Source of the DNA: Squalus acanthias
Taxonomy: Eukaryota
Length of the DNA stretch: 64,000 nt
Direction of reading: 5' to 3'
Assembly: GCA_030390025.1 (NCBI GenBank)
Contig: CM059430.1
Span: 74,338,001-74,402,000 of the forward strand
Shown: in pieces, positions 5,131 through 64,000 of the stretch
How positions within the stretch are numbered: the stretch's first letter is position 1
Layout of the letters: every line of letters starts with the position of its first letter
Program-made: the position numbers and the translations under genes
Notes under the pieces: model-generated
The model's input: the letters and a program-made list of their open reading frames with translations, nothing else
Databases searched by the model: none
Told to the model about the DNA's origin: nothing

Positions 5131-5139
5131 TAGACCTGG

Positions 5140-14974: not shown

Positions 14975-14990
14975 AATAATAAAAGTGTAC

Positions 14991-15045
14991 CTGGATACAA
15001 AATGCCCAGGAAACACATGCCCCAAAGTGACTTATTCATAAACAT
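14991..15045 (-). CDS. Gene A exon 1: signal peptide MFMNKSLWGMCFLGILYP
   Basis: ATG, 55 nt, phase-1 donor CAG|gtacac; splices in frame to the V exon; conserved in gene B. Confidence 0.75.
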
Positions 15046-15099
15046 TTCGGCAATGAAAATACGGTGTATCATCCGTTCTGACTGAGAGTGGAATTCATG

Positions 15100-15170
15100 A
15101 ACATTTGACGAATGGGCGGCTGTGTGCCGAATACAATCTCAAACTGATCTATGATGTCAGACAGCACATG
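15100..15170 (-). promoter_or_regulatory. Possible proximal promoter of gene A (GC box, CRE-like TGATGTCA)
   Basis: GGGCGG and TGATGTCA lie about 70-110 bp upstream of the ATG and are both retained in gene B (60751-60797). Motif evidence only. Confidence 0.3.
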
Positions 15171-22200: not shown

Positions 22201-23079
22201 TGTAACAATCTTTACTAAGGAATTGTAAAACATGTGGGAAAATATAATTTTTATTCGGTCAGTTGGAAATCAATTGTACAAATGCCGGTCTTTAAGTTAT
22301 TTTCCCACGCCACAGATTAACTCAGACTGGGTACGTGCTCTCTGCTCTTTGGTCTGTGTCACCCATAGGCCCTTTAATATGGAATGCACTGACTGGTGGC
22401 TAAGCGGGTATAATAAATGGGAGCTTCAGCTTGTGAGAAAATCACAAAGTTACTAGATACATTCGACATGCAGGATAACTTCCAGATGTCGGTGAATTGG
22501 TGACCGTCAGGCTCATTAATTAAATATTCTTCTAAGCAATCGACCTGCTTTGTGGAAAGGAATTAAGTTTAATCCAGTGCAAACATAACAATAATGGCTA
22601 GGCAGTATTCCATTATTAACAGTTCCTCGTGGATTGTCCCGAAATTGCTGCTGAAGAGGTGCTGCTTCGGCAGCTCGGCTTCTTGGGAAGAAATATGGTT
22701 TTCTAATTCACACGGAACCGTCCATGTAGCTGACAATCTGATACACGGACGTCTTCGGCTGTGGTATTAGCTACACAGCAAAGTAATTGAAGGGAAGCGA
22801 TGTAATTGCTGTTTATCTAAATAAGACTAGTATTCATGATAAGGATACCGACAGAGCCACATCAACACTTTTTAATGTTCATAAGCTACCAACAGGCTCT
22901 ACGTTAGAGTAAGTAGGACATGTCCAGGGGATCAACTTTGCCCTGTATATGTGAATTCCTTCGAATCATGTGAATTGTTCCCCATATTTCCGAGAAATAT
23001 AGCAACACTAGTTCAGTTATAATGTGAGGCTTAAATTATCCTAATATTTACTGAAAAATCAATGTAAAAATCAAAGCAA

Positions 23080-25050: not shown

Positions 25051-28000
25051 AGATTTTTTTTTAGGCAGTGTGACTAATTGCATGCCTCTTTATAGAGCCG
25101 GCCCAGGCTCTATGGGCAGCATGTCCTCCATGTGTGCTGCATGATCAGATGATTCTAGATTGCGGAGATCCCAGTAAAGATGTAGGAGCCCTTTCCCTTT
25201 CGGGGGCCCATATCTGTTCCTTCGTTGGAGATCCATGGTAATCACGATCCAATCTTTGCCAGCGTCCACTCCAAAATGCATGCAATACCAGTTTGGACTA
25301 TTAGAACAGGGGGCCGTATCCCGGCATAAAATATAACGATTGAGTCACGTTATTCTGCAGTAAAACTAACGGCGAGGCTAAGAGCGCTCACCTTTATTAA
25401 AGGGTAATTCGAACAGCAACTTCCATATCCGCAGTCAACTGCGTAAATCAGGAAGTTGCTGTCCCAGATGAACTGCTCAGCCAGAAGTTGCGCAATAATA
25501 GTATCTCACGGAACGATTCGCCATTGTAATACATGACGTTTCGGCACTTACCTCATGTATACGCAATAAACTCGCCTGAAAGTGGTAGAGCTTGTGCATT
25601 CCAGTTTAATACTCGTGAAACGTCGTGGTGTGTCTTAATTACTGCCAAAAAACCTCTGGCACTGAAAATTAACTTTAAAAAACGTGGGGTCTAACTCATT
25701 CATATAATTGCTAGAGATATAAAAATGTTGTTTTTCTTTCAGTCTCGTTTTGTCTCTCCCTATCTCTTAATCAAATACCAACGGAAGAGTTCCGGAAAGT
25801 CTGGAAAAAACAGCATAATTTTAATTATTTCTGGATTTGCTGCAGCTATTCTTCCAAAGTTACTGCGGATCATCGGGAGCACCCCCAGAAATTAACACAA
25901 TATAAAACCTCGTCTGCTTCGAAAGTTCTTAACAAGCAGTATGATACTTTTCCAGGATGGCAGTGAATCCAACGGACGCTCCACTCTCACTAAATTAATA
26001 ATTATATAGCTTTTCGGAGTTGGAAGCTGACACAATGCTTATGCGTCATTCTCTGTATTCTGGGAATGTGCCACATGGTTCAGCAGTAGAATTGGCGCAA
26101 GTTGCTCTTCCGTGGGCACATCTATGACTCCATTAAGTTTGAAATAGAATAACTAGAACAATGACAGTTTCACATTTTGATATTTGTCTTTGTTTCATTG
26201 TTTGAGCGTTCCCATTTGATAAGATTCTACTCAAGGGTAAACTAGAAAAAATAAAAGCGCACGAAATTGGACGGGCCGTTATGACATGGGCTACGAATTT
26301 GTTCGGAGGTAGGCGACAGAGACTTGATATAAAGGAAACGTTTGCATATTTGTGGGACGGAACCATAAGTATTCCCCAGAAATCTGTACTGGTATTTTAG
26401 CTTTTCACCATTTACATTAATGACTTGCATGAAGCAACCGAGGGAATAGAGAGTTTGAGAGGACCTGAGCGTCAGCGGGTGGAGGAGCAGCAGCATAACT
26501 AAAGCGGCACAGAAGGACTAGGAGTGAGTGGGCCTGAGCGGCAGCAGTATGTTTACTGGGCGAATTCAAAAACAATGAAAATCAAGGAGTAACGTCTGAA
26601 GGCAGAAGTTAGCTGATTGGTTGTTGAGTATGAGTTTTTCTTGCTTCTAAGCTAGGGAAGTGCATTAAACTAAGAGCTGGGAAACTATAACTTGCTATTA
26701 CTTTATAAAATGAATAACTTAAACTTTTTAAGCTAAGTAATTAATAAAACGAAAATAATCGATTGAATAAAAGCAGTAACTAATTAGTAAATAAAGCAAG
26801 GTGAAATAGAGATGACAGGGCAGGTGGTGTTTCGAAACTACAGCATGCGGGCGTAGATGCAGACCAGTGAGATCCTGAGCAACCACATTTGCAATAAATG
26901 ACTGCAGCTCGAGGAATTGCAGTTCAGCTTTCTGGAGCTGGGATTCGAGTTGCAGACATTGTGATGCATCAGTGAGAGGGTGAGCAATCTGGCCATTTAT
27001 TGCCAGGAGGCAGTCACACCCCTCAGGTTAAGTACTACTTTCAAGTTAGTCAGTGATCAGGGACAGGAGCATGTGCCTGCGAGTCAGGCCGCTATGGGGA
27101 CCCAACATGTAATGATGGAGGAGCTTCAGCCCTTGATATTGTCCAACAGGTGCGTCGCACTTGCTACCAAATCGGATGAGAAAAACGACTGCAGGAAGGA
27201 TCGGCAAACTGACCAAAGCACGGTGGATCAGGGGAGCCATCAAATTGGAGGAGAAAAAAAGGAATGTGGTAGTAGTAGGGACAATTTTGTCATAGGGGGA
27301 TAGATACTGTTCTCTTCAGCCTCAAAATAGTGTCCTAAAGGCTGTGTTGATTGCCAGGTGCCAGGTTTAAGAATATCTCCTCGCGACTGGCAAAGAACCT
27401 GGAGCATGAGGGGGTGGATACAGTTGTCGTGCTCCACGTAGGAACCAACGACATTGGTAGAACTAAGAATGAGATTCTTCTGAGTGAGTTTGAGGAGCGA
27501 GGGTTTAACTTAATAAGTAAAACCTCAAGTGTATTACTACCTGACCCACGCGGAAATTGGCATAGGGCCAAGCAGATCAGAGAGTTAAATGCATGGCTCA
27601 ACGATTGTTGTGGGAGGAAGGGGTTTGTTTCGCGGGACACAGTCACCAGTACTGGGGAAAGAGAGAGGAGTTCCATTGGGGCGGCTCCACTTAATCCGGG
27701 CTGGGAGCAGCGTACTGGCGAATTGAATAACTGGGGCTGTAATCAGGGCTTAAAAGTAAAAAGGGGGGAAGTGTCAGGTGAGAAGAAATTTAGAAATCTG
27801 AAGAGAAAATTGAAGGCAATACAGCAATATAGCGATTTAGGTAAAGATAAGCAGAGTGCGACAGGAAGGAACAGAGAGTTTAACTGTTATAGTACATCAG
27901 TGAATAAGGGTAAATCAGGGAGTAACGGTAAAACAATAAAAATAAAGGTTATTTAACTGAATGCACAAAGCACTGCAAACTAGATTGATGAACTAGTGGC

Positions 28001-28699
28001 ACAAATAGAGATAAATGAGTTTGATCCAATAGCCATTACAGAGACGTAGTTGCAAGCTGACCAAGATTGATAAATAATTATTCCAGGATACTTAACGTTT
28101 CGAAAAGAGAGGCAGATTGGAAAAAGAGTGGGGTAGCCCTGATAATACAGGATCGCATAAGGACAGTAGTGAGAAACGATCCTGGCTTGGAAAATCAGGA
28201 AGTACAATCAGTGTGAGTGGAGATGAGGAAAACATGGGCCAGAAAACACGATTGATAGCAGATTATAAGCCCCCTAACATTAGTTCTGTCTTTGGACAGA
28301 GTATTAATCTGCAAATAATAGGAGCTGGTAACAAAGATAATACCTTTGGTGGACTTTAATCGTTATACAGACTGGACAAATCAAATTGGCGAAGATCGTC
28401 TGGAGGATGAGTTTTTGGAATGCATTCGAGATAGTTGCCGAGAACAATGCGTCATGGAGCAAACCCGGGAACAGGCTATTTTAGAGCTTATATTGTGAAA
28501 TGAGACAGAGATAATTAGTAACCTCACGGTAAAGGATCCACTGGGGCAGAGTGATCATAATATGATAGAATTTCACGTTCATTTTAAGAGTGACATATTT
28601 AAGTCTGAAACATGAGTCTTAAACTTAAATCAAGCGATATCGGTATGAGGGGCGAGTTGGCTAAGGTAGATTTGGAAAAAAACTTAATAAGTGTGATAA

Positions 28700-29640
28700 C
28701 AATAGAAAAGGCTATTTTCAGCATTCCGTAGGGACCGCTCCCTCCGCGACACCCAGTACCTCTTCCCCTTAACCCGGCATCTTCCCGTGCAAGCGCAGGA
28801 GATGCAACACATGCCCTTATACCTCCCCCCTTCCCACACTTCAGGGCCCCAAACATACCTTCCAGGTGAAACAGCGACTTACTTGTACTTCTTGCAATTT
28901 AGTATACTGTATTCGCTGCTCACGATGCATTCTCCTCTACATTGGGGATACCAAACGCAGATTGGGTGACCGCTTTGCCGAACATCTCTGTTCAGTCGGT
29001 AAGGATGACCCCGAGCTTCCGGTCGCCTGTCACTTAAATTCACCACTCCATTCACACTCAGACCTCACAGTTCTCGGCCTCTTGCATTGTTCCACGGAAG
29101 CTCAGCTTAAGCTCGAGGAACAACACCTCATCTTTCGATTAGTCACTTTACAACCCTCTTGACTCATCATAGAGTTCTACAATTTCAGATCATAACCTCG
29201 GCCCCTTCACATATATATATATTTTATCCGCACTTTTTGTTTGTGCCTTTTTTTTTCTCTTCCCTCCCACAAGGCAGCTGTCTTTCATTCTGCCAGCGCA
29301 ATTCACACTTCATCTAGAGCCACCCTTTGTTTATTAACCTGTCCCATTACCATCTCCTCTTGCCTTGAATATCTCTTAATGCCTCTTTACTTCTCCTGCC
29401 TTCCATCCTATCACAGACCTTCCCATTTGTTCTTTCATCCCCTCCCCCATTTCCCAGCCCCTAAACTTGCTTTAAAATCCGTTCCATTTCTTGCTTTTTT
29501 CCAGTTCTGAAGAAAGGTCTTCGACCTGAAACGTTCACTCTGTTTCTCTCTCCACGGATGCTGCCTGGCCTGCTCAGTTTTTCCAGCGTTTTCTGGTTTT
29601 ATTTCAGATTTCCAGCATCCGCAGTATTTTGCTATTGTAT
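28700..29640 (+). mobile_element. Penelope-like element nested in the CR1
   Basis: NLVYCIRCSRCILLYIGDTKRRLGDRFAEH (GIY-YIG); same family as 14315-14974; direct repeat AATAAGTGTGAT near 28686 and 29642. Confidence 0.9.
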
Positions 29641-36680: not shown

Positions 36681-38162
36681 CTCCAGTATATAACAATTTA
36701 GCGTCACTTCTGTAAACCGGAAACTTCAGTGGCCGTGGACTGTCATTTTCAAGAATAGTTCTGCACCGGCATTAATGCAATAATATTGAATAATTATCTA
36801 ATTTACTTCATATATAATTAACTTTGATATGATTCAGTGAAAACTGATGGATGCTTCAAGTGTCTTGGCAAAATCTGTTGGAAAACTGGACGGTACAAAA
36901 AACAGGCCAGACATTTAGTACAAGATAACTACTACGTTTTTCTAATTCCTTTCACTCACTTTTTGCTCAATTAATGATACGTAACCCTTTGCAAAGTTAA
37001 CCCTATTGGCAGCTATTTTTCATACCTGGTTTAACGTGCAATCATATAATGAAACAACAAATTATTTTGAATTAGTTAATGGAAGTTTAGTATATTAATA
37101 ACAATGGATCGAGTAATTGAATGGAGAAAAATTATTTGAACATTTTCTGTAAAATACTGAATAACTGGCTTAAAATTGATGCAGAATGGTGCATACATAA
37201 CATAATTTAGTTGCATTACGCCGAAGATGGAAATCTACTGCTTCGTGCAAAGATGAGTAACTGGCTAACGTCGAATATATAAAATTCTTATTGCGGGTTT
37301 ATCTATGCAAGTTAATGATGGAATTTCATCACCAAGAGTACAAATATGAGAAGCACTTCGGGAATTTTCAAAATTTCTTAGAAGTGTAGATCAATATATA
37401 GTTGAGAAACTGGCCCTGATTATTCCTTAAGTCAGTGCTAGCCGTTCAATATATATAGAAACGTTGGAAATCACTTTGTGTTATTGTTGTTTCTCGCAAC
37501 TCAGGTCTTGTCTCCTAAACCCAGGTATTTCTTTAAAAAAATGACTGGCATTCTGCAGTATATTGGAATTCAAGCACTCAGTCATATAATTCATTAAGTA
37601 ATGATTCTACTTTTTTCTTGTGAAAACAAATGATTATTACACTTCCTTGATCTAGGCAAGAGAGATGCTTAACACAAAATAACCAGCACAGGATGAATAT
37701 TAAACTCTTGATATCAGAACCTACACGTGCTGTCATATATTATGAGTCTATGTCAACATTTTTACTAACATTCTACAGGGACGGAGGACCGTTGGGCCTC
37801 TTGCCAGTGACTCGTCTACCTGCCTGGCTCGTGTGTATTGATTTTTGTGAACCCGAATGTGCAGCCATAAGAAGCATACTTCAAAATAACAACGGAGAAA
37901 TATTTACGCCTTAGTGTTTGTTAATTTTCAGAACACACAGTTGTCTGAAATTAATTTTATTCCAAAAATTAAGTGAACGTCTCAAAATGATAATGTTGCA
38001 GCAGGAAAGAAAGCTGCTCCGGGCCATGAAATAAAAGTGTCAGTTTTCTGGTGTTGAACAATGCTGGAAGAATATAAAGATGTATATATTCTTTTGATTT
38101 ATATGTGCTTCTTCATTCTGGTAGCAATATTTCTTCCCCTGCTCATCCTGATGAATACGCTG

Positions 38163-38280
38163 TTAAAACGACACTTAAATGAGTGCTTTTTCTGAGTACT
38201 TACGTGGATTGTCCACGAGGTCAAGTCCGGCGAAATGTCACAGCCGAGGGGGAGGCGAGGCGGGGGTAATTGAGTTTTAG
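38163..38280 (-). other. Structured 3' end of the R2 3' UTR
   Basis: TCAATTACC...GGACTTGACC-TCGTGGACAATCCACG-...AGAAAAAGCAC; contains a CGTGG/CCACG hairpin and resembles vertebrate R2 3' UTR ends as recalled from memory. Confidence 0.55.
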
Positions 38281-38861
38281 GATAGTATAGGCGGCTATGA
38301 CTATGTTTTTTCTAAAATGTTGTCCCTCAAACTGTCACCAAGCTTTGGGATACACCCACCTGCAGCGAAATGCCGGATCTATAGTTCTGACAGTTATTTG
38401 GCAGTGTTTGCCTTATTACCTGTCATCATTTGAAACTTGCAATTCATTATTAACATTACAGATGTGGCTAACACGTATTCTAACTTATACATTACAGATA
38501 GCGGGAGAAATTCGGTATCTCCCCGTTTGGGGCGCAATTATTGGCCGGGCACAATGTTTAGTGCCTGGCGCTTATTATCACCTCCGACTGCAAACCTGGC
38601 TTTTCTCGCCCCTGGAGGTGATTGGAGCGATAAATCAGGCGCTGCACACCTGTTTTAAGGTGCAAAAGCCAAAGAGCGAGGCGCTAACTCTGCGCCCGGG
38701 TGCAGCGCAGGTGATCTCAGTTAGCGATGGAATACAGACACACTGGCGCCGGCCAGTTCTTAAAGGGGAGGGTCAATCTTGATCTGCAGCCATACCCTGC
38801 TCTTTAGAGCCTTGAATCTCGGCCTGGAGAGACCTGTGCCTACATTTTCCAGCCAAAGACC

Positions 38862-40624
38862 ATGGAGAGGTTGAGAGGAGGAGCTCAGCACTTCAGCGAT
38901 CGGATCTTGGAGGCTCTGGTTGGCGCGGTGGAGCGTAGAAGATCAATAATCAAACCTGAGAGGGGCAGGAGGCCTTTGTCGCGTGACTACAGAAGAGTGT
39001 GGAGGGAGGTGGCTCAGCACGTCTCCTCCAGGAGCATGGGGCCCAGGAACCATACTCAATGCCGCAAAAAGTTCAACGACCTCAGTCGGTTCGTCAGGCT
39101 GAGTGATTTTTTTTCAATACGTCTCCATCCCTTCATTTCAAACTCATTCTATTGCCAGAGGGTCTTAAAACCCCATTGCCCAACACTCGTCCAACACCTA
39201 TGGACCTCTCATGAAACACACACGCACTTTCACCACCTTGCACACAGTAAGGTCTATTCAACGATGGGAGGCAAATCAGGAAAGACCATGGCTGCATACA
39301 TGAAGGACTATTCAACTTTGGGAGGCAAATCAGGCAAGCCCATGGCTGTATATCTACTCAGACGCCGTCCTTTTTCTTGCAGGCCAAGCTATCTCATAAC
39401 AGGAGACAGAAGCAACGGATGGCTGGAGGGTGGCCTCAGCTGCAATCCCTCAGTGAACTTGGGGCGCGTGTCCACAGGATTGTGGCCATCCAGGTGATCG
39501 GCCCCGTCACCCCTGGTGAGATCGAAACCTTCGGGACAGCAATGGTAAAGATTTCTCTCCTCTCTCATTCCACATTTCCCTCATAACACCAGCATTTGAC
39601 ACTTTCAATCCAACTTACTAAATCGCTCCAACCCTTCCTCACTTACTTTTCCCCTGTCCTAAAGCCACTCTTGTACCTCCCTGCTTTAAGATGGTGATTC
39701 ACCAGCTGAGGATACGGGCCCTCAAGCTACCAGTGGGAGCGAAGCTGCAGGCGAGGAGGAAGAGGAAGCCAGATCCTCAACACCCCCCTCTCCCGAGGAA
39801 GCCCATGTCCAGACTGGGACCACGTCTTCCCGGGAGGGGAGCATTGATGAAGGGTCTGATGAGGGTGAAGCTCCGGGACCCAGCGGGCTGCAGCAACACG
39901 ATGTGGCTAGGGAAGCTCGCGGGCCTTCTCCCCGGAGGGAGAGTAGGCCAGCTAGCCCTGCTGCACTGGACGCAGAGGAGGAGCGGCTCATCGCTGAAAT
40001 TAACACCCAGGTGGTGGATATGCATACACAGCTCATTAGTGCAGTGGGAAGGGTGCCTGAAACCTTTGATGCACTTGCAAGGAGTGTAGAGCCCTACGCG
40101 GTAGCACAGGCGGATGCCACGCAAATGCTTAGTGCTGCAATTCAGTCACTGGCTGCCATGATCAATCGCAGACTAGTCTCATGCAGTCTCAGATTGATGC
40201 CACGCAAGCACTGACGGCTGCCATTGTGGCTGGTTCAGACAAACTTCCCTGGGGCTCTCACATTGCCGCAGCAAGCCAGCAATCTGTGCTCCAGCTGATT
40301 GCTCTGGATGGTGAGGTGCTGCCCTGTGGGAGTGCCAGTGTGATGGTCGAGCAGGGAGGTGCTGTCCTCTCTCAAGATGAAAGCATTCCTGCTGCCACCA
40401 CTGTCAGTTCCCCACTGCACTTCCCACCGCCTGTAGCCCAGACTGCTGCTGCCCATGCAGAATTGGTGCAGTCAGCAGCCGGGCCCTCCAGGACCAGAGC
40501 TGATCGAGGCCACCGCTCAAGGGCATCTGTAGTCTCATGTTCTGACAATCAGCAGCCTTCCACCAGCCTTGCTGCAGCCACTGGGGCCCCATTACGGAGG
40601 AACAGTAGGGTGGGAAGTGTATAA
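38862..40624 (+). pseudogene. Harbinger Myb/SANT-like DNA-binding protein gene (three exons, disrupted)
   Basis: FSDRILEALV...WREVA...QCRKKFNDL, then AKLSHNRR..GG, then an acidic/low-complexity exon. First donor appears mutated (ctgagt) and there is a frameshift near 40190. Confidence 0.85.
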
Positions 40625-40934
40625 GTGCGCAAGGGAAGGAGATTACCATCGAAGGGCAAAAAGTAGGAGGTATGACGAAATGTTGGGAATTTTTTTATTA
40701 AAGGCTGAGGTTCGTGTTCGAACTTTTGTTTAGAGTTTTGGCCATTATCTGCAGGTTGTGAGAACCAGTTATGTTAATTAATGAGTTTTTGTGTTTGTTT
40801 CTATTAGTTTGTCATGAAGAAATGACATGCACAGAGTTTTTAAAATAAACAATTTATTGTAATGTAAATGTACAGATTTGGCCTTTGGAATCATTGCTTC
40901 CTTGGCTGGCTTTGGGGTTGGGGGTTGCTTTGAT

Positions 40935-42049
40935 TCATGTTGTTCTCCATGCCAAAAGCCATAAACTGAGTACGGGCTTAGAAGTGCTTGATATCAGTCG
41001 TTGATGGACGGCCCTTGCAGTTTCAACATTGTGGGCCTCCCTCCCGTCTTGGTGCTGCTGCTGATATTCCTCCTTATCTTCCTCTTCCTCCTCCTCCGGT
41101 CGTGCACCAAGGCCTGGTGGCATTGGCTGGTTCCTGAGGAATGGCAGGTTATGAAGAATGCAGCACACAACTATGAAGAGTGAGACTCGCTCAGACCAGT
41201 ACTGCGGGACTCCTCCTGAGTGTTCCCGAATGCAGAACCGTTGTTTGAGCACGCCAATCGTCTGCGCAATGATGTTCCTGTTGGCGAGATGTCTCTCACT
41301 GTACCGCAGCTCAGCAGGGGTGATGGAGGTTATGGAGCAGTGTCATCAGTCAGTTGCAGAGTGCTTAACCCTTGTCCCAGATGAGCCAACCACTTGGCTG
41401 ATGCGGTGCCTGGAAAAGGTCTGGCACACCAGTCTGGCGCAGGATAAAAACATGGTAACTGCTGCCAGGATAGCGGACATTGAGAGCGAGTATCAACTAT
41501 CTGTGGTCAGAGAACAATTGGATGTTTAAGGAGTGGAACCGCTTGCGGTTTAAGACAACCTCTGCATTCTGATGTAGTGCCTGCAATGCCACATGCTTGC
41601 AGTCAATGGCGCCTGGCTCCATGGAGAAGCCCGCTATCCTCGCAAAGCCCAATGTGCATCCATGCTGTTTGGCACGGGTCATCAGGAAAGAGATGTACTG
41701 GCGCCACCTTTTATCGAGGGCATTTGTGACCTGACAGATATAGCAATGGACCACTAACTGGGAGATATTGGCGATGTCCACAGTAGCTGCTTGAAAGGAG
41801 CTGGTGGCATAAAAATTCAGAGCCGCTGTGATCTTCAGTGCCACCGACAGAGACGTCCTGATCCTTAGTTGAGGCTCCAGATCTGGCTGCCGCAAATGGC
41901 AAAACTCAGTGACCACCTCCTTGCTGAAGCATAGCCTGTGCAAACACTGCTCCTCAGACAAATGAATGCAGGAGAATTGTTCCCAGAATACTCTGGGAGG
42001 GCAAGGTCTCCTGTGTAGAGGCCTGCTGGCCCTCCTCCGTCTGGCCATG
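40935..42049 (-). pseudogene. Harbinger (HARBI1-like) DDE transposase, disrupted
   Basis: ALNFYATSSFQ, GAIDCKHVAL, NRKRFHSLNIQL, LKQRF, IVVCCILHN; stops, frameshifts and an apparent internal deletion. Confidence 0.9.
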
Positions 42050-42809
42050 ATTGCCACTATCTCTCTGCGTCTCTTTACCGCTGATTCTGCAGGCGCAGGA
42101 CGACGCCCCAAATGAGTGCAGCCCCCAAGTTGCATGACAATCGAAGTAATGAAGGTCAAATCTAAAAGTACCTGCAAAGTGACGCTCATTAGCCAAAACT
42201 ACTACACGTAGCCTTGAATCTACGCAGATATCTCTCTCTCTCTCTCTCTCAGAATCTCTCCATCTCTCTGTCAGAATGTGTGGTGCAAAAATGTCTACCA
42301 CAGAAAAAGGCAGGAAGAGGGCGGCTTTAAATAGCACCCCCCCAGCCCCTCACCGAATTTGTGCACTGCCCCAAAACCTCTCGTCAATTTCGCGAGCGGC
42401 GCAAACATCACCGCGCCTGGGTGTTCGTTGCATTGCACCCCATTGGTTGCTAATGGGAGGTGCAAACCAATCGAATTTTTCCCCCATAGTGACTATTGTA
42501 AATAACTACTAATTCTAATATAATAAGGACAAAAAGAAAATCCGTATTATGGTTTTAACTACTTAGTTCCCGTTATAAGTCCATGTATTATTCTGGCCTT
42601 AATTTGGAGTCCATGAAAATTTGAAGCATTTGCAGTGTCAACAGTAATGTCACTCTTGAGGTTTCATTTGCGAAGACTTTGTATCGGTCAATTTTTAAGA
42701 ACTTCTTAAGTGCGTTATTCAGTCTAACCTTAAGTCTCCGATTACGAAAGCAAATATATTATATTGCATCCATTTGTCATCTCTTAAGTTACAGAAACCA
42801 GATGTTTGT

Positions 42810-43419
42810 GGCCCGTATTTTCCGATCGCAGGCCTCGGGCGGGCGGAGGCCTGCGACCTGGAAAAATGTAGGCCCTTACCTGAGGGCTCCCGGTACGCAC
42901 ACGCTTCCGCTCCTGGGCCTCTTCAAACTGGAAGTATGCTGGACCTAGGTATCACAGGGGCGCATGTTGTTCGCAGCGTCCCTGGGATCACGAGGGCCAT
43001 GGGGAGCCAATCAGAGAAGGAAATTTTCTTTCATATATTTGACATAAAGATCTGTCAACTATATGAATGGAGATCACCCCAAAAACATAGTAAAATTTTA
43101 AACAAAATTTATTTTTTTGAATAAGATAATTAAAGTTTTTTATGGCGCTAAAAATAAACTTACCTTTTTTAAAAGTATTTTACCAGGTGTAAGAATTGTA
43201 AGGTTTTTCTGCGTGCGGAGCGTCTCCAAAAAGCGGAACAATCCGCCCGTAGAGGGGCTTCTCCAGGGCAGCCGGAGGATCTGTCCGGACCATTCTTGAC
43301 TGATCGGAAATGCCGGTTTTCAGCGCATGCGCAGTTCATGCATGAAACTGGAATTTCCGATGTCCCTACGGGTGGGTACTCAGTGTGTACCCATCCTTAG
43401 GGACCGGAATGACTGGGCC
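42810..43419 (+). mobile_element. Harbinger-like MITE inserted in the R2 endonuclease region
   Basis: TIRs GGCCCGTATTTTCCG / CGGAATGACTGGGCC; R2 coding sequence resumes on both sides. Confidence 0.8.
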
Positions 43420-44199
43420 ATTATGTGCCTTCGATCTCCGCCCATGTCTTCTTCAGGGATTTGTTATTTTCCTTGTACTCTCTCGTCACATCGACTACGA
43501 CCAAATCATCACCATTCAGAAAGATTATGTCATGTATCCAAAGTTTGCCGTCTGAGAATTTGAGTCTGGGATCGATGTAGGCTGGCCAGCCATATGTACT
43601 GGTCTTTTTCTTCAGCCTTTCGAGAACCGTGTTGTGTTTCTTTATCTTTGCGTTCTTAACTGAGCGACAGCTTGCTGTTAGATGGGATAGGGTTTCGTTA
43701 GCAGCACCGCAGTTCCAGCAATGTTTCGCTGATCCGATCCTTCCGAGTGAAAGTGTGTATCTAGTGTGGTAGATATTTGATCTTAGTAGAAGAACGTTTA
43801 CAAAGTTCGATTGCTTAATTTTACTTTTTAAACTGATCCAGTTGTTTGAGATATTATCGTTAGGATAGCAAGTCAGCCCTGAGCCTTGCTATTGGAGTTT
43901 TGCCCAGTTTTCCAACTCCAAGCTTCTCCATTTTAATTATTCATTTATGTTGGTCTTCCTTTTCCTTAGCCGGTCCTCGGGTACTATATTTTGTAGTTGT
44001 TCTGCTATGTCCGCCTCTAGATCTTCCGATTCTGTACCACTGTCCTCAATGAATATTTTCTTCGATGATCCTTCGTGCACGTTTGCCTCTCTGAGTTCTT
44101 TAGGATTTCCCAGTTTTTCAATGTTGAGATTGTTGTTTGTTCAACAATACTTGAATGAGGCTCTTATGATAGGGTCGCTTGAGTTCTCCAAGACATAAT

Positions 44200-45091
44200 G
44201 GGGGAAAAATTCAGTTGGTTGCGCCTCCCTTTAGCACCTTAAGAGGGTGCTAATGGGGCGCAAATTGTATAGCGCACGGGCGCGGCGATGTTTGCGCCGC
44301 CCGCGAAATTAACTAGAAATTTTGCGGCAGAGCTAAACTCTACCGCTATGATCTCCTGCGCCGGCAGATCGTGACGTCAGTCGAGTGCGCAACACCTCGG
44401 TATCGCCCCGGAGCGGATATTGAGTGGCACCCCCTGCCTTACCACCTGCCGGTAGCAACAACAGGTTGAGGGGAGCGTTTTGCAGTCAGGAAGGGACTTG
44501 GGGAGCGCTATTTAAAGGTGACCATTTCCTGCCTTTTATTGTGGCAACATTTTAGAACCACGCATTCTGAGAGAGAGAGAGAGAGACTTCTGGAGAGATT
44601 CAACGCTGTGTGAAGGAGTTTTGGGTACTGAGCAGCCCTTTGCAGGTTCATTTTGATTTGCCCTTTCTGGTAAAGATTTAGAAGAGACTGTGGGGGCTGC
44701 ACTCTGAGCTCTTTCCCTGGTATTCTCCATTGTTGTTTCCAGCAGATTTGATGTGCAGGTCTCTCCAGGCCGAGATTCAAGGCTGCAATGAGCAGGATGT
44801 GGATGGAAAGCAAGATCAACCCTCCCCTTTAAGAACTGGCCCACGCCATTGTCTCTGTGTTCCAATGCTGACTGACATCGCATGAGCTTCGCCAGCGCTC
44901 TGAGGTAGCGCCTCGCTCCTCGGCCTTTGCGCCTTAAGATAGGTGTGAAGCACCTTATTTAGCGCTCCAATCACCTCCAGGGGCGATAAAAGTCAAGTTT
45001 GCAGTCGGTGGGGATAATTAGCGACAGGCGCTAATCTTTGCGCCCGGATGATAATTGCACCCCAAATGGGGCGATACTGAATTTCTCCCCC
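44200..45091 (-). mobile_element. Non-autonomous Harbinger deletion derivative inserted in the R2 ORF
   Basis: TIRs GGGGGAAAAATTCAG / CTGAATTTCTCCCCC, TSD AAT; both ends match the 38501-42485 element in reverse orientation; keeps the start of the Myb gene (MENTRERAQ). Confidence 0.9.
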
Positions 45092-48019
45092 AATGTTTCC
45101 TATTATCGCCGATGGTATCTGCATTTCCAAGTTGGATAGGCTCAATCTCCAATCTCTTGTTCTGAAGTAGAATGTTCCGTCGGAGATATCTTTGGGTAAG
45201 TGTAGAATTTCCTTGATAGCCTTTTTAATTATTCGGTCCATGAATAATTAGTGTAATCTGTGATACCTCTGTGAGAATAAGATGGTCGTAATTTCTCGGT
45301 ATCAGTTGTGTTTTTAATATCACAATCATCTGAGTGGGTTTGACTTCAATAACTTTGAGATTGCGTACCCAATTTGAAAGTTTTTTCTGGCCACTTATCT
45401 TCAGTGACATCTGCACATGGATCGATCTGAGCACCAAGATATTTTTTCATTGTTCCTGGGTTTATGTAATCCAGATATTTACTATCTAAGCCCCATTTCC
45501 TTCCTTGGTTATATGGGGAAGTCTTGTTACTAGTATTCAGTTGGAACCCAGCAATCTTTTTACGTTAATTGCCAGTCCTTTTTTCTTACAGAACGTCTCC
45601 AACATGGAACAGTTTTTGATCTCGGCATGGGAGTCGCTTAATATTTCAATGTAGTCAGCGATGCGAGTGCTGTGCATTTCCTTGAGCTTTTGTTACATCT
45701 CATCCATAAGCCGGAGCCATCCTTTTCTAGTTAGCAGAGGAATGGGACCATGGTTATGTTGAACAGAAGAGAAGAAAGAGAGTCGCCTTGTGTGATCCCT
45801 TTCTTGATGATTATTTTGTCTGTTATTTCCCTGTCTACTTCAATAATCGTTGTAGTTCCGGGGATAACGTTTTCAATTAGTTTAATGAACTGCTTGTTCA
45901 GCCCCATCCTGGCCAGACCCTTCGATATCAATTTGTGTACAGAGGAGTCGAATGCCTTGGCCAGGTCCACGAAAACCACAGCCAGTTGTTTTCGGCTGCT
46001 TTTCCCTCATTTTGTAATGTTTTGGAGTATGGCTATGTTCAAGTGACCTACAGGTTCTGCCGCTAAGAAGCCGTTTGTCTGGGATTTCTGCTGATAGCTT
46101 AACCTTTATGTGCTGATTTTGGTAAAGGGACGGATCAGTATGTCGCCTATTGATAATGGTCTCCAGTTATCTAAGCTTTTGAAGAGCTCTGTGTCTTCTG
46201 ATTTAGGGATACGTATTGTGCGACTTTATTCACGCTTTCTGGAATGGTTTTTGATTTCATCCATAGTGTGAAGATACTTGGCAGGAGGGTGAAATCGATT
46301 CCTTCTATGTTCATCAGATCTTCTGCTGAAGTGCCACCATGGCCTGGTACATTGCCTTTCTTCATCTCTTCCACGGCCGATTTAATCTCTGTTTCGCTTA
46401 TTTCTTTCATAAGGACTGTAAATTTGCTTTTTTGGTGCACCCTGCAAATGTGTCGATATCTGCCGTATCATTTGGTTTGGATACTTTGTTTCTGTAATAA
46501 AGTTCCAATTCTTCCTTTGTTAATGGACATTTGATTTGAACTGGACCGGCCATTACATGATTAGCCAATCTCGTTCTGCCTTTTTTTAACAGTGTTTGGT
46601 TCCTTTTGTAGTCAACCTATCTGCTGGTGTTATTTTAGTGCACCCGACTTGTTGGAGAATATTGCTGTTTTGTTCTTGCTGTTATTATTATTGCAACGCT
46701 TAGCTATGTTGTTTTCTGTTAAATTTCCCGTTGTGGACTCGATGAGAGCTACTCCACGTGTTAATTTTATTCTGAATCCCCTTGGTTTTGTAACAATTGT
46801 TCTGCTTCTATAATTAGTTTTGGCAAATCCATTTTATCCCTCTTAAGTTTTGATGGTGTCTTTCTTTGGTTATTATTCTCTGATAGTGACTTGGTACAAA
46901 AGATCATTGCGTTCTGCATCTGTTCTGTTGTTTCCGGGATTATTATTGGATTAATGGTTGTTACACTCTTCTTCCTCAAAGCTATGAATTCCCTTGATCT
47001 CCGCTTATCTGATATCTATCTGCTGGTTTTAGTTTTTAGTTCATTCCTTATTTTATCATTAATATTGTGACTACCTTTGGGTGTTAATGCTAATTGAAGG
47101 AGAAGGCATAAATCCTCATCCGACCATGCTGATTTCCTTCCTTTAGGTTTCTGGGGAACGGCATAATTTATCCTTTTCTCATTTCTTTGTACCGCATGCT
47201 GGTGCCATTCATGCTGTCTTAACCCACTATGTGTTTTAAATGTCTTCTGACAAATTGTGCATTGATAATCTTCTATTGGGTCGGGCTGCGTACTCCTTCT
47301 ACATTTGCCTTAGTGGCAGGCGGTGGCATGGTAATCGCCTTTTTGTTACATTTGGAACAATTGTTGATTTAGTTTGACGAATTACATTTTATGTTTTTAA
47401 ATGAACTAATTGTGTTAAGAATCGCTCTACCGGGAATGCTCAATCATTGCTCTGTTGGTTAGTGAATGATAACCTCGCTCTGATTCTTGTGATTATTTTT
47501 GGGTTCTATTCGAATCATTTCGCTATAGGCACCCTTTATTGTATCTATTAAATCCTCAATGTCGTGAATCTCTGTATTGGTATTTTTAATTCTACTATCC
47601 GGCGGAATTTTTAGGGCAGAATTGTGAAAGATAAGATGCTGAATGACGATTCCACTAGGTCTGTAATGATCATTTTCTGTAGCTGTTTCAGCATTTCCAT
47701 CAGGAAAAAATATCTCACCGTCTTTAACGACCGCAATCGGTATCCTACTGGGCACAAGAAATGGTCTTATACTGTATATATGCGGATTTCAGTGCTAGCC
47801 TGGCAGGAGTAGAGCTAGAGAACTCGAAGCTTTTGCGCTTAATATGCATTGTCGCTGGACGATTGGATACAATGCTGGGGACGTTTTGCTCCCGGGCCTT
47901 GTTCCAGCCGGAATGGTAATCCTTGAGTGGTTGTCCGATTGTTTTTAATGAAAATGTGTTTTCACTAAGCCTGCAGGGAACCTGATCTCCACAGCTCACC
48001 GTTACCATTTTGATTCCTT

Positions 48020-48177
48020 TGAGCAGTCGTTTAGCCAACACCGACGTGTTCTTCGCAGTGGGACCGCGGGGCAATAGGACACACCGTGATCGGAAATCTA
48101 AAGCACCAAATCAAATGTAACTACTTTCCCAAGTATGGATCACAAGCGCACTTAAGAGAGCCATATTTTCTCCTGCC
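48020..48177 (-). ncRNA. Decayed HDV-like ribozyme of the R2 5' UTR, including the 28S-derived leader
   Basis: Leader GGCAGGAGAAAATATGGCTCTCTTAAG; TAGTTAC (48123-48117) complementary to 28S GTAACTA; TCCCAC (48063-48058) as the P1 partner; hairpin AACAC-GTCG-GTGTT as P4; GCTAA as J4/2. Confidence 0.7.
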
Positions 48178-49479: not shown

Positions 49480-50790
49480 AGAACAAAAGAACATAAGAAA
49501 TATGAGCATGAGTAGCCCATATGCCCCATCGAGCCCGTTCCACCATTCCATAAGATCATGGCTGAACTTTTGCATCAACTACACTTTACCACCCTAACCC
49601 CATTTCACTTGATTCCCTTAATAGACTAAATGCATCTATCTCAGTCTTGAATATAATCATAGATTGTGCATCCATAGCCCTTTGGGGTAGAGAATTTCAA
49701 AACATTTACAACGCTCTGAATGAAGAAATTTCTTCTCATCTCTGTCCTAAATGGCCGACCACTAATCCTGAAACTCTGACCCATAGTTTTCGAATTTCCA
49801 GGCAGGGTAAACAGCCTCTCAACATCTACACTGTCAAGCCCTCTAAGAATGATATACTTTTCAAAGAGATCACCTCTTATTCTTCAAACTCCAGAAAATG
49901 TAATCCCATTCTATGCAATCTCTCCTCGTGGGTCCGCCCTCTCTTACCAGAAGTCATTCTAGTGAGCTTCGTTGCACCCGCTCTAAGGCAAGTATATATT
50001 TCCTTCGGTATGGATACTAAAACCATACACATTACACCAGGTTTGGTCTCGGCAAAGCCCTATATAATTTCACCAAGACATCTTTACTCATATACTCCAA
50101 CCGACTTGCAATTATGGGAAACAGTCCATTTGCCTTCCTAATTGCTTGTACCTGCAAGTTAACGTTCTGTGATCCGAATACAAGGACCTCCAAACCACTC
50201 TGAACACCAACATTTTAAAAATCGTTTATTTTCCATTCTTCCTCCCAAAGTGGATAATTTCTCACTTCCCTTATTACACTCCTTCTGCCACCTTGTTGCC
50301 CAATCACTAAAACAGTCTACGTTCCTTTGCAGCGTCTTTGCGTCCTCCTCACAGCTTACCTAGCTTTGTATCGTCAGCAAATTTGGATATTTTGCACTTG
50401 GTCCCTCATGTAAGTCTTGACATATTTTGCAAATAGCTGAGGCCTACGCACTGATAATTGTGGCACTCCAGTAGTTACACGCTGCCATCCCATAAATGAT
50501 CATTTACTGCTACTTTCCGCTTTCTGTCCGTTAACCAATCCTCACTCACATAACACCCCCAATTCCAAGAGATCTACTCCTGTGTAAGCAACTTCTTGCA
50601 TGGTACCTTATCGAATGCTTTCTGAAAATGCAAATATACTACAACCACTGGTTACCCCTTATCTACCATACTAGTTAAACAGTCAAACACAATAATATAT
50701 TTGTCAAACACGATTTCGAATTCATAAAACTGTGTTAACTCTGCCTAGACAGTTTGCGATTTTCCAAATGCCCCGTTACCAATTCATTAT
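49480..50790 (-). mobile_element. CR1 LINE 3' portion
   Basis: AAGAACATAAGAAAT reverse tail, then reverse ORF2 including the FADD region near 50380. Confidence 0.85.
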
Positions 50791-57997: not shown

Positions 57998-58812
57998 CTA
58001 TCAAATTGATATAACATCAAAATTATAATGTATGGAATGTAAAACGTATATACAGAGTTCAAATTTTATAAACATATTTCCAAATATACTCCTATGAGAA
58101 TAAAACAACGTGCATAAAGCCTCACCAGATCGATTTCATTATCTCTGTATTCACCAGATTTGTGTGAAACCGGAAACAAATAGTTTGAAATACCCAGTAG
58201 TTTGGATACATAGCAGCAATATTAAATAATGGGAAGAAAACTACACCGAATGGTCGTCTTCTAATTGACGCGATAAAGCGCATTGGATAAGAATTCATCT
58301 GGTCGCGAGATGTCGAAAATAATCAATTAGGTTTGGATGTTTTCTCTGATCAGTATATAGCACAAACTCTGAAAGATATTAAGTTAAGAATTCGTTCGTG
58401 TTTCTCTTTGCAGCCAATCTTCAACAAGGCTTTTTTCCAACTCTCCACAAATGCGACCAAATTAATTATAATTTCATATTTTGTATAGGGTCGAGGGAGC
58501 CGCACTGTGCATCTGCTGATGCTGAGAATGACCTTGGACTGCTTTTGGCTGCAGGAGTGTGAAGGCCTTCAATTACCCACCTCCGTACCTACACCCCTCA
58601 CTAACTTTTCCAGTTTCTGGCATCAAAGCTCAACGTGCTCCCCCTTCTAAGCTTGCAACGTTATGACAGTTAGTCTGAATTATGTAAGCAATGCTGAAGA
58701 CTGGTGTTCACTATTGGCTAAGTTGCTTACGTCCAACTTAATTCTCATCTGATTGAAATAAGCAATATGAGATGGAATCGCGATTAATGTACAACGTGTG
58801 ATTTAATATTAC

Positions 58813-59118
58813 CTTCGTTAGCAACGGTGTAGCTGGCATTAGCTGGAATTGAGTTAGAAACGTGATGTACTTGACAGGTGTAAACTGTGCCGTGCATGAT
58901 TGGCTCTGTCTCCTCTAAGGAGCTGATAACTTCATACAGTCCCTCTGTCTTTGCGTGTTGTTCATTTCTAAATCCAGTCAGGATTGTGGTACCATTTTTA
59001 TGCCAGGTGAGGTTAAAGTCGTTCGGGTAAAAAGGAGCCGTTCTGCACTGGAGCCTCAGAGAAACGGATGAAGCCCCTTCGGATGATACGGATACAATTA
59101 TCAGGGGAGCAGGGGAAG
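58813..59118 (-). CDS. Gene B exon 3: C1-set Ig domain
   Basis: 306 nt, phase 1-1; LQCRTAPFYP, LTWHKNG, YEVISSL, YTCQVHH. Confidence 0.92.
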
Positions 59119-59329
59119 CTAAATGATAAAGAACAAAATTCAGATAAAGCAAAACATCTGACATGTATTCTATCTACTCTTTGATTTTGTAAAATAACAA
59201 ACAGCTCTTTCCGGGCAGCGTAGTTGTATTGATAATCATTATTTATCCTAACTGGAGCCCAATCTAAGGTTTTCTTCGCTGAAGCTAAACGTTCCTCCCC
59301 CGCGGTATTGACATATCAACGTTTTATAT

Positions 59330-59590
59330 AGTAAAGTTGATTTACAACATTGGGCCTCTTTTTGTTAATACCAATGTGTTCGAATCGCCAGGCTGCGCTT
59401 AAATTGTTGCCAGAGTACAGTCGAGGTTCTGCTGCTATACCGAGAAGATTTCTTCTTCTGGAAAATGACAATCGAGTTCGGACCTTGGTCTGGACTACAA
59501 CACTTGCTTTATCCTCTGCGTTTCGCCAGTTCCACGGTACGCCGTTCAGGAATTTTATGTGGAATGCAGAATCTGGAAGCGCCCTCTAAA
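59330..59590 (-). pseudogene. Degenerate V-like pseudo-exon in intron 2 of gene B
   Basis: Remnants VPWNWR, VRTRL and LDCTLATI*AQPGDS in shifting frames. Confidence 0.4.
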
Positions 59591-59968
59591 AGATGCTAAT
59601 CGGAATCGTGCTCTTCTAATTAGATAAACGACATTTAAAAATGTATAATATTTCGAGTAAGCCCAAGATTCTTCATCCTGCCAATTTGTGCTCAAACTTA
59701 AATCCTCTTTTATTTCCCAGCCTTGATTTCACTTTTATCGACAAACAGAAAATCAAATATTTATTGCTGATATAGGTCAGTTGTCACGTTTTGCAGAGAC
59801 CCTGGGACTGGAAACTTTCCATGTTGTTGAACACATGTCCTTCTAAACAAATAGAAAGCTCTACTATTTTATACAGAATGCATTGCTGTATTGAACGCCT
59901 TTGTTAAGCGCAGTTTAAATAGCTGCAGCAACTAAACACTTCACGTTTCTAATTGCAGCCACACTTAC

Positions 59969-60280
59969 CATATACAATAAGTTGTACACCACTATTTTTT
60001 GCAACCGTTTGTTGCTGATATTTTGCTACAGCGTAATACGTTCCGGCGTCCGGGATAGTTACATTCAGGATGTGAAGGTAGGCGCCGCCTCTCTTTACAC
60101 TGAACAATTTTCTGCTGTCTTCTTGCAGGAAGGTCTTATTACCATCTCTCCACCAGTAAACAATTACGTTTGAATGATCGAGATCGAAGGGGAAAGAACA
60201 TCGGAAGGTAACTTCTGTGCCTCTGAGCGCCTTCTTTTTTACAATATCCGGAGACACCTTGTCCGATGTGCCCATAGCAA
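59969..60280 (-). CDS. Gene B exon 2: VJ-type V-set domain, F-strand Cys replaced (YYA)
   Basis: 312 nt, phase 1-1, canonical splice sites, open frame; VTFRC, VYWWR, DAGTYYA, KNSGVQLIV. Confidence 0.9.
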
Positions 60281-60627
60281 CTATGAACAAAAAATGCATA
60301 TTCGGGTTTAATCATTCAGAAATAAGGAAGATGAACTGCAGCACCAAAATAACATCGTGCGTCCAGTCCTTTCCAAATGATACATTTGTAATTCAATGTA
60401 CCTAATTATAAGACTTATTTTCCAGTTTCTGAATGAGTTTTCTCATAGAATTATCATAAATAACATTACCTTTGTCAGCCAGTTATTTCCCTCTGGCAAG
60501 GAACACATGATATGAAAACAATTCATCAAATTAAAACAGTATAAACAATACCCGTTTGCACATCAACTATAAGCTGATGTGCTGTGTCAGGAACAGTTAA
60601 TGCATACAAAAAGTAATAAAAGTGTAC

Positions 60628-60682
60628 CTGGATACAAAATGCACAGGAAACGCATGCCCCAAAGTGACACATTCATAAACAT
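60628..60682 (-). CDS. Gene B exon 1: signal peptide MFMNVSLWGMRFLCILYP
   Basis: 55 nt, phase-1 donor CAG|gtacac, paralogous to 14991-15045. Confidence 0.72.
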
Positions 60683-62547
60683 ATCGGCAAAGAAAATACG
60701 GTAGATCATCCGTCGTGTCTTAGAGCGGAATGGGTGAAGATTTGACGAATGGGCGGCTGTGTGCTTAATATAATCTCCTACTGATCTGTGATGTCAGACA
60801 GCACATGATTTTTTAATTGCATAATGTTTTTTCATTCATTCGCGTAATGTGGGCATCGCTGGCACGTCCAGCATTTATTACCATTCCTAGTTACCACTGA
60901 GAAGTTGATGGTGAGCTGCTTTCTTGAACAGCCTCAGTTTTTCGCAGCGCACAACTGAATGGTTTGGTAGGCTTTTTCAGAGAGCAGTTAAGAGTTCACC
61001 ACATTAGTGGGGAAATGCATGCCCCTTAGAGGTGATCAGCCAAGGTAGTTGTGAGCAGAAACGGTAGCAGGAACTAGGGGGTTGTAGTAAAAGCAAAATA
61101 CAGAGCTTAATACAATTGCACATGAGCTCACATTCCATAAATCCTCTTTTCTTCACCCGCCAAGACGGACGAATACTGCATATCCTCGGTGATTTTGATT
61201 CTGAAGAATCTGCTAATTGGGTCCATTGTTGTCCTAAGAAGGATAGCCTGAGTACGAAAGTCCATTTCTGTCGGGCTGCTTCGTGTAAGAAATATTATTG
61301 GAAGTAAGGATGTTCCACAGATTGTTTGACCGAGCCACAATTAGAAGACTTGATGGCACGGCAATATTGTGGTAGTGGAGGTAATTGAATGTAGGTGGAA
61401 TAACTGTGTCGACTTTCATATTTATCTTCGAATTGCTTTTAAGAATTTCAGAGCATTATATGGACTATGGATATTAGTCATTTTACTATAAAAACTGTGA
61501 CTACAGTTGGATTCAGGTCCCCAGTAGCAGTATAACTCGCCAGTCAGGTTCCGAATTTAATCTGGAGCTCATTGGTGTCAAGCAGTGATAGAGTGAAATG
61601 CTCTCCGCCTCGAAAATCAGTCCCCTATAACTTGTGGCTGGGTGTAAAAAGCAGCATCTCCTGGACATTCAACAAGCTATTCAATAAATTGCGATGTGGA
61701 AACATGGCAGTTTTGTCACTTTAGCCCATCTGTCTAACACTCCGTCCGACGCCGCTTAAGAAAAGCGTTAAACCAACGCCCAAAAATTGAAATCACCTCT
61801 ATAATCTGTAATCCCAACATAAAAATGTGTTGTCAGTTTCATGGTATTTTCCCCGATATCCCAGCATAACTTCTCGTGAATATCTGCGGTAAGCCCGTGA
61901 AAATTCTGGTCCTTAAAGTTTTAGCATTTTCCCTTGGTCAAGACCAAATTTGGATACAATTTCATTGAGAATTTTTATTTAAAAATCGCAGTTATAGTTA
62001 CATCCCAAAGTAGGCAGTTTCACCAAGTAATAAATAAACTAAATTTAGTTGGAGGTAGAAAGATACAAAAGTCTAATTTAGCAAATGATATATATCAAAA
62101 ATTGAAATTAAAAAATACTTGCCTTATGCATTGCGTTAATGTGCGTAGTTAATATAAAACTGCACTGTCACTTATTGTAAATAACTGACCTTTATAGTTA
62201 AATGGTGTACCAGAAAATCATTTATTGAGCGCTTGTTTCAACTCATTCTCTTGGAATTACTGCAGAGTTTCCTGCCAACTCCCTACACAGCATAGGAGAA
62301 GCATTAGTGGGAACCCCAGAGAAAGTCACAGCAAATATTTCAAATTCCTGATTAAAACCTCATCAGCTACGCTATGACGAGGTCACAAATTCTGAGAAAA
62401 TAGTATATCAGCGATGGTTCCTGTCTGTTTTTTCACTTAATTCAACAAACCCGTGCTAATGGCTGAGCTGACCTTAGCATTGAATTAACTGCTTTATTTT
62501 GTTATTGGCTGTAACGAGCGGTAGCGATTCTGCATTTGACCAATAAT

Positions 62548-63289
62548 GGCCCAAAAATTAGTGAGTGAGCCTTCGTGCGAGGGTAAGGCCTTCCCGCGAT
62601 CTCTCACTGCGCGCTGGCTTTTTCAGTCCGAGCTCGCACGAACTTGATGTTCTGGACAGCATCTGTGCAGTGCTTTCGTTTCCCACAGGCGTAGTTAATT
62701 CGTGCGAGCTGTGGGATCACGTGACTCAGTTAGAGCAAATGGCAGCACACCATCTTTCATTCATAACTTTCACAGCACGGCTGTGAAAGCTATGAATACT
62801 ATACCCCCCCCAAAAGAACAGCTAAACCTCAATTAAATTGAAAAAAAACATCAGATTAATAAAATAAGTATAGTTAAATAAATTAACCATTTTAAACAAA
62901 AAATTAAATTTTTGAAAAAAATTAAAATCTTTTAAAAAGTTATAAAAATAAACTTACCTGTCTTTAAAGTCTCTAAAAAAGATATACCTGTTAAATTTTT
63001 TTTTAACTAATACATAATTAAGTACTTACGTTTTTAAAAGAGGGTCTAACGCCTCCTTTCTTTATGTCTAAAATCTTCCATGCTTACCTGGGCGTCCAAA
63101 GCACTAAGTGCACTGCGTGCGCGCAGCCTGTAGCGCGCACGCGGTTCACCTAGGAACCGCCCCCTTTTGAATTCACCAAGTGCCGCTTGTCAGCGCATGC
63201 GCAGTGCATGCAGAAAACCGGCAATTGGAGACAGAATACGTGAGAGTACACAGTGAGTACTCTCGCGTAGCGGCACTAATTTTTGGGCC
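62548..63289 (+). mobile_element. Harbinger-like MITE with AAT TSD
   Basis: Near-perfect TIRs GGCCCAAAAATTAGTG / CACTAATTTTTGGGCC, AAT on both sides. Confidence 0.88.
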
Positions 63290-64000
63290 AATATCTACAA
63301 AGGCTGGAACTCTGAATATTTTTTAACGATTAGCTTGTCAAATAACAGCATCTACAATCGAGCAAATGTATGAAACTCCAAGTGGAAAAAGTTGCACGTA
63401 TTGACATGAGGTCAGCTCTATACCGTTTCTTTATAATTTAATGCTTGACTGCAAAGGACGTGTTGCACAACAAGCTGCTTTGAAGAGGGTTCATGCGGTT
63501 CAAGTTAGGTCCGTAGCATCACACAGCCATTGAGTGCTGTTCATTATTGCATTTTGTTTGTAAATACCAAACCGCAAGGTCAGGTTCTTTTTTTTGTGGA
63601 ATGATGTGAACTTGATGGCGTCTGAATGCAAGATTATGTGTTGTATTTATATTATTAGTAGTCTATCAACAGAATATATTTCAAAAACAAATTTGGGGTA
63701 ACTTTTTATCTTTCTGGTCTCGGGGCAGAGTTTCATGCAGCGGGGAACGTACCGTACATGTGTGCTTCCAGTCCTAGGCTACCATATATTACTGTGAACT
63801 ATAGATAGAGAAAAGGCCACACACACAGGCAAATACGATTCTGGGTTACATTCCTGCTAGAATTATAATAATAGAAACGAAGGGATTTTGAATTTGCACA
63901 AGGCAAAATTTGAGCGTCATTTGAAACATTTCATGCTGTTCTGTCCGTCCCATTACAGCAAATGTTTTGTTGCCATTAAAAGGGTACAGCGACGATTCAA

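Follow-up and report, generated by a model that had tools for sequence, protein, structure and literature searches.

R2 retrotransposons normally insert only in ribosomal RNA genes, where copies turn over fast and old lineages as a rule leave no trace. How an R2 element with two recognizable ends came to lie outside these genes is the question raised by a 64,000-nt stretch of the genome of Squalus acanthias (GCA_030390025.1, contig CM059430.1, positions 74,338,001 to 74,402,000), referred to below as the window and numbered from its first letter. The minus strand from 48177 to 38163 is an R2 retrotransposon in which both ends survive and the open reading frame (ORF) is broken. Its position is probably best explained by one ancient off-target insertion of an R2 RNA that had been made in ribosomal DNA (rDNA) and cut by its own ribozyme.

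Three DNA transposons, all very abundant in the sequencing contigs, split the element into four pieces (48177-45095, 44199-43420, 42809-42489 and 38497-38163). Without them the R2 sequence comprises 4,492 nt, or 4,519 nt together with a 27-nt tag derived from 28S at its 5' end, in agreement with the length of about 4.5 kb proposed in the initial annotation, a reading of the sequence without database searches. The first piece carries the tag (48151-48177), which contributes the 5' strand of ribozyme stem P1, a 5' untranslated region (UTR) with a decayed hepatitis delta virus (HDV)-like ribozyme recognized by a core motif match and by stems drawn by eye (48026-48150), and the remaining 5' UTR with the 5' part of the ORF (45095-48025), from the N-terminal extension to the start of the thumb. 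Within this part lie a remnant of zinc finger ZnF3 (about 47455-47385), a frameshifted CCHC finger ZnF2 (47359 to about 47303), a CCHH finger ZnF1 (47267-47196), a Myb domain (about 47130-47000) and the reverse transcriptase (RT) domain (about 46420-45250). The second piece (43420-44199) encodes the end of the thumb, a zinc knuckle (about 43717-43664) and the RLE endonuclease, whose PD motif, at about 43534, reads HD. The third (42489-42809) holds the end of the ORF, with a stop near 42590, and the first part of the 3' UTR, and the fourth (38163-38497) the distal 3' UTR, ending, as judged by eye, in a conserved lineage-A motif and a terminal stem. The whole domain order of R2 had been claimed and is present (ZnF2, ZnF1, Myb, RT, zinc knuckle, RLE), with ZnF3, one of the three N-terminal fingers (CCHH, CCHC, CCHH) of lineage A, seen only as a positional remnant devoid of its cysteines; the description "full-length" holds for the two surviving ends and fails for the ORF.

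The limits proposed for the nested elements were upheld, two of them also by a contig from a second copy described below. The element at 44200-45091 is a non-autonomous Harbinger-type transposon with terminal inverted repeats and an AAT duplication (45092-45094), and that at 42810-43419 is MITE-like, with terminal inverted repeats, high contig depth and no clear target duplication. The largest, 38501-42485, is a decayed Harbinger-type transposon with inverted repeats, a 3-nt ATA duplication and high contig depth; it contains a Myb/SANT ORF on the plus strand and a DDE_Tnp_4 transposase on the minus strand (Pfam PF13873 and PF13359) and is related to the element at 44200-45091. Both belong with 49480-50416 to one abundant Harbinger-type family with terminal inverted repeats in common.

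The RT, knuckle/RLE and N-terminal pieces, compared with solved structures, all gave turtle PlaMe (9nl2) and zebra-finch TaGu/R2Tg (9nl3, 9dou) as best matches, with E-values of 3e-31, 8e-29 and 2e-17; against R2 of B. mori the same pieces gave 1e-13, 1e-4 and 5e-3, and L1 matched only the RT piece. PlaMe and TaGu also have a similar 3' UTR end. A frameshift-aware alignment over the ORF showed 334/990 identity to protein P0009, which by eye is the PlaMe ORF of the table in PMC13188248. (Papers are cited by PMC number.) In an RT tree built with FastTree from 141 of 151 rows, 10 having been dropped for short coverage (P0006, P0007 and P0012 among them), the window RT falls in a seven-row clade (support 0.992) with P0001, P0003, P0004, P0005, P0008 and P0019. 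This clade is nested in a 64-row, mostly three-finger clade containing PlaMe (support 0.993). The window RT is about 50% identical to the clade proteins, which resemble cartilaginous-fish R2s by eye, and these six proteins and the window have motifs in common with the Squalus, Scyliorhinus and Stegostoma R2 entries, also by eye; the label "shark type" rests on this by-eye comparison with Table S2 of PMC13188248. Judged by sequence, the element is a lineage-A R2 of a shark-type clade beside turtle PlaMe.

Two metagenome scans were made, one of which found no relative, and the second gave 56 loci, all at no more than 46% identity. Of six of these loci tested, one carried 28S; a metagenome contig (L001:5111-5269) with an R2 3' end joined to 28S served as positive control.

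The tag (48177-48151) corresponds to 28S positions -28 to -2, with 23/27 identity in 18 of 21 comparison loci and 22/27 in the other three; these loci are eukaryotic and archaeal large subunit (LSU) genes from prokaryotic assemblies, and vertebrate 28S was compared by eye only. Upstream of the tag (28S -70 to -29) identity falls to 7-15 of 42. A 23-nt 28S motif has its sole match in 64 kb at the tag and matched none of 100 shuffles. The sequence preceding the tag is no closer to upstream 28S than random 32-mers of the window (best fraction 0.065 over the 21 loci), and a gapped 28S likeness directly upstream of the tag was dismissed as chance. The divergence of the tag, 4/27, is not above the decay of the R2 body (about 8-15%). 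The 27 nt of 28S-like sequence recorded at the 5' end in the initial annotation were thus borne out at 23/27, beginning at the ribozyme cut site -28. Self-cleavage of R2 ribozymes occurs most commonly at this position, also in zebra finch, and rDNA junctions with duplications of the same length are known (PMC3774820).

A ribozyme-core motif of PlaMe matches 48056-48071 at 14/16 positions and none of 100 shuffles. The full HDV order can be traced by eye: P2 (48080-48076), P3/L3 (48075-48063), P1' (48062-48057), the P4 hairpin (48050-48037, also present in the predicted fold), the catalytic-C linker (48034-48031) and P2' (48030-48026). P1' is in register on the tag with 4/6 pairs kept, and both lost pairs appear by eye as CpG-to-CpA changes. 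These features point to a remnant of an HDV-like ribozyme that used 28S bases from -28 and has probably lost cleavage; no ribozyme or rRNA match was found in the window with Rfam.

Exact matches to the R2 target motif of 28S were also seen in 23 contigs of prokaryotic assemblies (L057-L079), mostly resembling eukaryotic contamination and in some cases archaeal LSU rRNA, and the motif was not found in the viral collection.

At the other end, the element terminates at 38163 to within about 1 nt, as placed by eye against the end of the PlaMe 3' UTR. Lineage-A R2s have a 3' UTR that ends in a pseudoknot-hinge-stem motif; the distal 3' UTR of the window copy resembles in sequence, by eye, those of PlaMe, Callorhinchus and Chiloscyllium, and its predicted fold has z = -1.86. 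Beyond it stand CAGC and unrelated, non-rDNA sequence, as first described. LSU rRNA had no match at the gathering score in the window and none at E up to 5 in 30000-56000, and the flanks scored against 28S no higher than the best shuffle in 12/12 comparisons. A placement of the R8/R9 type at another 18S or 28S site was likewise not found, with no rRNA family match in the window or flanks. Both flanks lack 28S likeness, and the copy is ectopic, as had been proposed, and not set in degraded rDNA or in the canonical 28S site. That both ends coincide with those of a processed R2 RNA points to retrotransposition and not to movement of a DNA block.

Alignment to PlaMe shows 10 frameshifts in the ORF and 11 stops over about 1,020 codons. 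A frameshift disrupts the RT motif FADD, in which one Asp has also been substituted; HD takes the place of PD in the RLE, and the ZnF3 cysteines are gone. Near-invariant RT columns are changed at 21 of 70 positions, against a median of 2.9% in relatives, some of the changed columns adjoining frameshifts and possibly being misaligned. In simulations of neutral decay, the stops correspond to about 8-10% and the conserved columns to about 15%; the copy is long dead, with an estimated decay of about 10-15%. Its CpG depletion (0.71-0.85) is not separable from that of an rDNA-resident control (0.75). Dating by the epaulette shark mutation rate of 7e-10 per generation (PMC10587355) would give more than 100 million generations, an implausible figure, and no age is assigned. 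The RT branch of the window copy measures 0.97, against 0.04-0.34 elsewhere in its clade; because this is longer than decay explains, the copy probably descends from a sublineage that was distinct or evolved fast. The proposal that the insertion preserves an old chondrichthyan lineage is plausible in view of this branch, and no intact multi-copy relative is apparent among the eight contigs listed per run for the R2 parts.

The stretch is present in five sequencing runs of one organism, from two studies, one of which may be the source of the window; three runs were compared at 80% likeness. Summed contig depth is 9-92 over the R2 parts, compared with 1e5-1e6 over the nested elements. Near-identical contigs in runs X2 and X3 span the 5' junction. 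A 1,426-nt contig, about 85% alike and found in X1, X2 and X3, which represent two samples, extends from 37906 through the 3' UTR to 43932. Across the places of two nested elements, which it lacks, it has about 337 nt to the window's 336 nt of R2, and its alignment contains gaps. Its first 257 nt, the low-copy 3' flank at 37906-38162, are common to the window copy and this contig. Further contigs among those listed, about 87% alike and at single-contig depth, span the RT and N-terminal regions; one of them has 8 gaps. Because the second copy carries the same 3' flank, it is likely to be a segmental duplicate, similar in age to a pair of immunoglobulin (Ig) genes in the window, and not the product of a second jump.

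These genes are represented by a V/I-set exon (13641-14000) with a C1-set exon (11804-12250) and by their paralogs (59952-60311 and 58787-59173), all on the minus strand. The two genes (11804-18402 and 58787-64000) are about 46 kb apart, and their surroundings are 81-87% alike, a divergence of the same order as that of the second R2 copy. R2 stands between the exon pairs, about 24 kb from the first and 11 kb from the second. The setting had been described as an immune receptor cluster, which is borne out in part: the two paralogous Ig exon pairs do flank the element at a distance, and searches of solved structures gave the receptors no family name.

The proposed off-target insertion would have begun with an rDNA-resident R2 co-transcribed with 28S, its HDV-like ribozyme cutting at -28 and leaving 28S bases on the 5' end of the RNA. 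The R2 protein would have nicked a non-rDNA site, aided at most by a short resemblance of CAGC to the four bases that normally follow the nick, and the RNA would have been copied there to its very end. With no upstream 28S to anneal to, the end of the cDNA would have been joined to unrelated DNA, and the tag would have been retained. Outside the rDNA array the copy could escape turnover and decay by about 10-15%; a later duplication would have copied the block along with its surroundings, and of the three DNA transposons at least two would have entered the window copy only. Such an event needs no new biology, because in human cells zebra-finch R2 makes about 1% off-target insertions, at sites with little likeness to the rDNA site beyond the bases directly after the nick (PMC11371274).

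Several points weigh against this explanation. The ribozyme region folds no better than shuffles (z = 0.34), and the CAGC likeness to the normal post-nick bases amounts to only 3/4 bases. No target-site duplication was found at R2, and neither an empty site in the window nor a joint across the element among the joints listed. The contigs show presence and not absence, and their depth is not copy number; sister copies with a decay of 10-15% each would show a likeness of about 70-80% and could miss the 80% cut-off. The second copy is known without its 5' junction, and the flank and R2 identities in its contig are pooled. A lineage living outside rDNA would also retain the tag, which P1 needs. 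Finally, the gene model P0007 joins a class C G protein-coupled receptor ectodomain (ANF_receptor, NCD3G) to a terminal piece of shark-type R2 RT, suggesting that in some genome a stray R2 copy lies next to a V2R-like gene and hinting at the existence of further strays.

The last two points lead to the alternative that survives best, although it is unlikely: an extinct lineage-A sublineage of shark R2 that lost strict 28S targeting and spread genome-wide with the tag built into its ribozyme. The RT branch of 0.97, beyond a decay of 10-15%, would suit such a distinct lineage, as would the shark-type piece adjoining a receptor gene in P0007, and non-specific R2 families exist in flatworms (PMC5035012) and a cockroach (PMC7650587). 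Against it, contig depth over R2 is low, and the sole readable second copy has the same flank. In addition, such extensions are reported to drift fast when free of constraint (PMC3774820), and the part of the tag outside P1 has changed no further than the dead R2 body. That the tag starts at the presumed ribozyme cut site, a point left uninterpreted in the initial annotation, speaks more for one off-target jump than for relaxed specificity.

An R2-bearing rDNA orphon that moved as DNA and whose rDNA flanks were later deleted or decayed is a quite improbable source, even though extra-rDNA R2, often incomplete, is reported in 5 of the 8 Drosophila species named in PMC2718515. Both breakpoints coincide with R2 RNA ends, -28 at the 5' end and the last base of the element at the 3' end, and the flanks score like shuffles against 28S, although a decay of 10-15% leaves 28S easily visible.

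R8 and R9 switched target sites within rDNA, and a comparable switch to a new specific target in a repeat of the Ig-receptor cluster, with separate insertions into paralogous units, could account for the 3' flank shared by the two copies. There is very little to recommend it: the element and its flank show a joint divergence of about 15%, similar to that of the Ig paralogs, so that duplication suffices, and the pre-tag sequence shows no excess likeness to upstream 28S over random 32-mers of the window. It is scarcely credible that the element is another RLE-bearing type (NeSL, R4, HERO or Utopia) with 28S-like bases by chance: the tree, which included no named member of those clades and so bears on them indirectly, nested the element with PlaMe, as its initial identification as R2 implied, and the element is nearer to PlaMe and TaGu than R2 of B. 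mori is, possesses a Myb domain and an R2 ribozyme core, and bears a tag beyond chance.

Other features of the window include GIY-YIG and RT fragments below the Pfam cut-off at 20061-20728 and 28773-29159, likely from Penelope-like retroelements, and decayed LINE pieces with RT, APE endonuclease and a weak esterase-like (GDSL) ORF at 9963-11078, 18820-22269 and 27351-28356. A long low-complexity tract, rich in CT and strongly skewed between the strands, occupies 5000-6600.

Among known systems, the closest are the lineage-A R2s of cartilaginous fishes (among them R2-1_STig, R2-1_SAc, R2-1_SCa, R2-1_CMax and R2-1_CPl; PMC13188248), which by eye have the same N-terminal extension, Myb domain and three-finger layout, the third finger being a remnant in the window copy; cartilaginous-fish R2s in that source also match the window R2 by eye in RT signatures, ribozyme core, 3' UTR motif and length (4.2-4.7 kb). 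The window copy differs from them in lying outside 28S and in its destroyed ORF, three nested transposons and long RT branch. PlaMe and TaGu are active and rDNA-specific, whereas the window copy has a broken FADD, HD in its RLE and a cysteine-less ZnF3. The extra-rDNA R2 copies of Drosophila likewise lie outside 28S; they are 1-2% diverged and often incomplete (PMC2718515), whereas the window copy comes from a vertebrate, retains both ends and is far older. Melanogaster-type full-length R1 copies outside rDNA carry 7-28 nt of upstream 28S at their 5' end, like the window tag (PMC2718515). R2NS-1_SMed and R2NS-1_CSi (PMC5035012) and the R2-like elements of a cockroach (PMC7650587) also occupy non-rDNA sites. 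All of these form dispersed families with many different flanks and fall in other clades, D and C in the case of the R2NS pair; for the window R2 a single insertion site is evident. In the literature searched, which mostly excluded subscription papers, there was no report of a complete ectopic vertebrate R2 with a -28 tag, nor of a vertebrate non-rDNA R2 family.

The finding is a known element type in an unusual place and alone changes no model. The usefulness for gene-insertion proteins foreseen in the initial annotation is not supported: the copy is badly damaged, and PMC13188248 (Table S2) already lists 13 R2 entries from chondrichthyans, several of them with 28S flanks and long ORFs. As a fossil, the stranded copy would stand for a shark R2 that has died out or diverged strongly. 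The exact end of a processed RNA appears to be kept at its 5' end, in support of ribozyme cleavage at -28 in a vertebrate germ line. It would also be a natural example of full-length off-target insertion by an R2 lineage under development for gene insertion, and a census of such strays would yield natural off-target site preferences.

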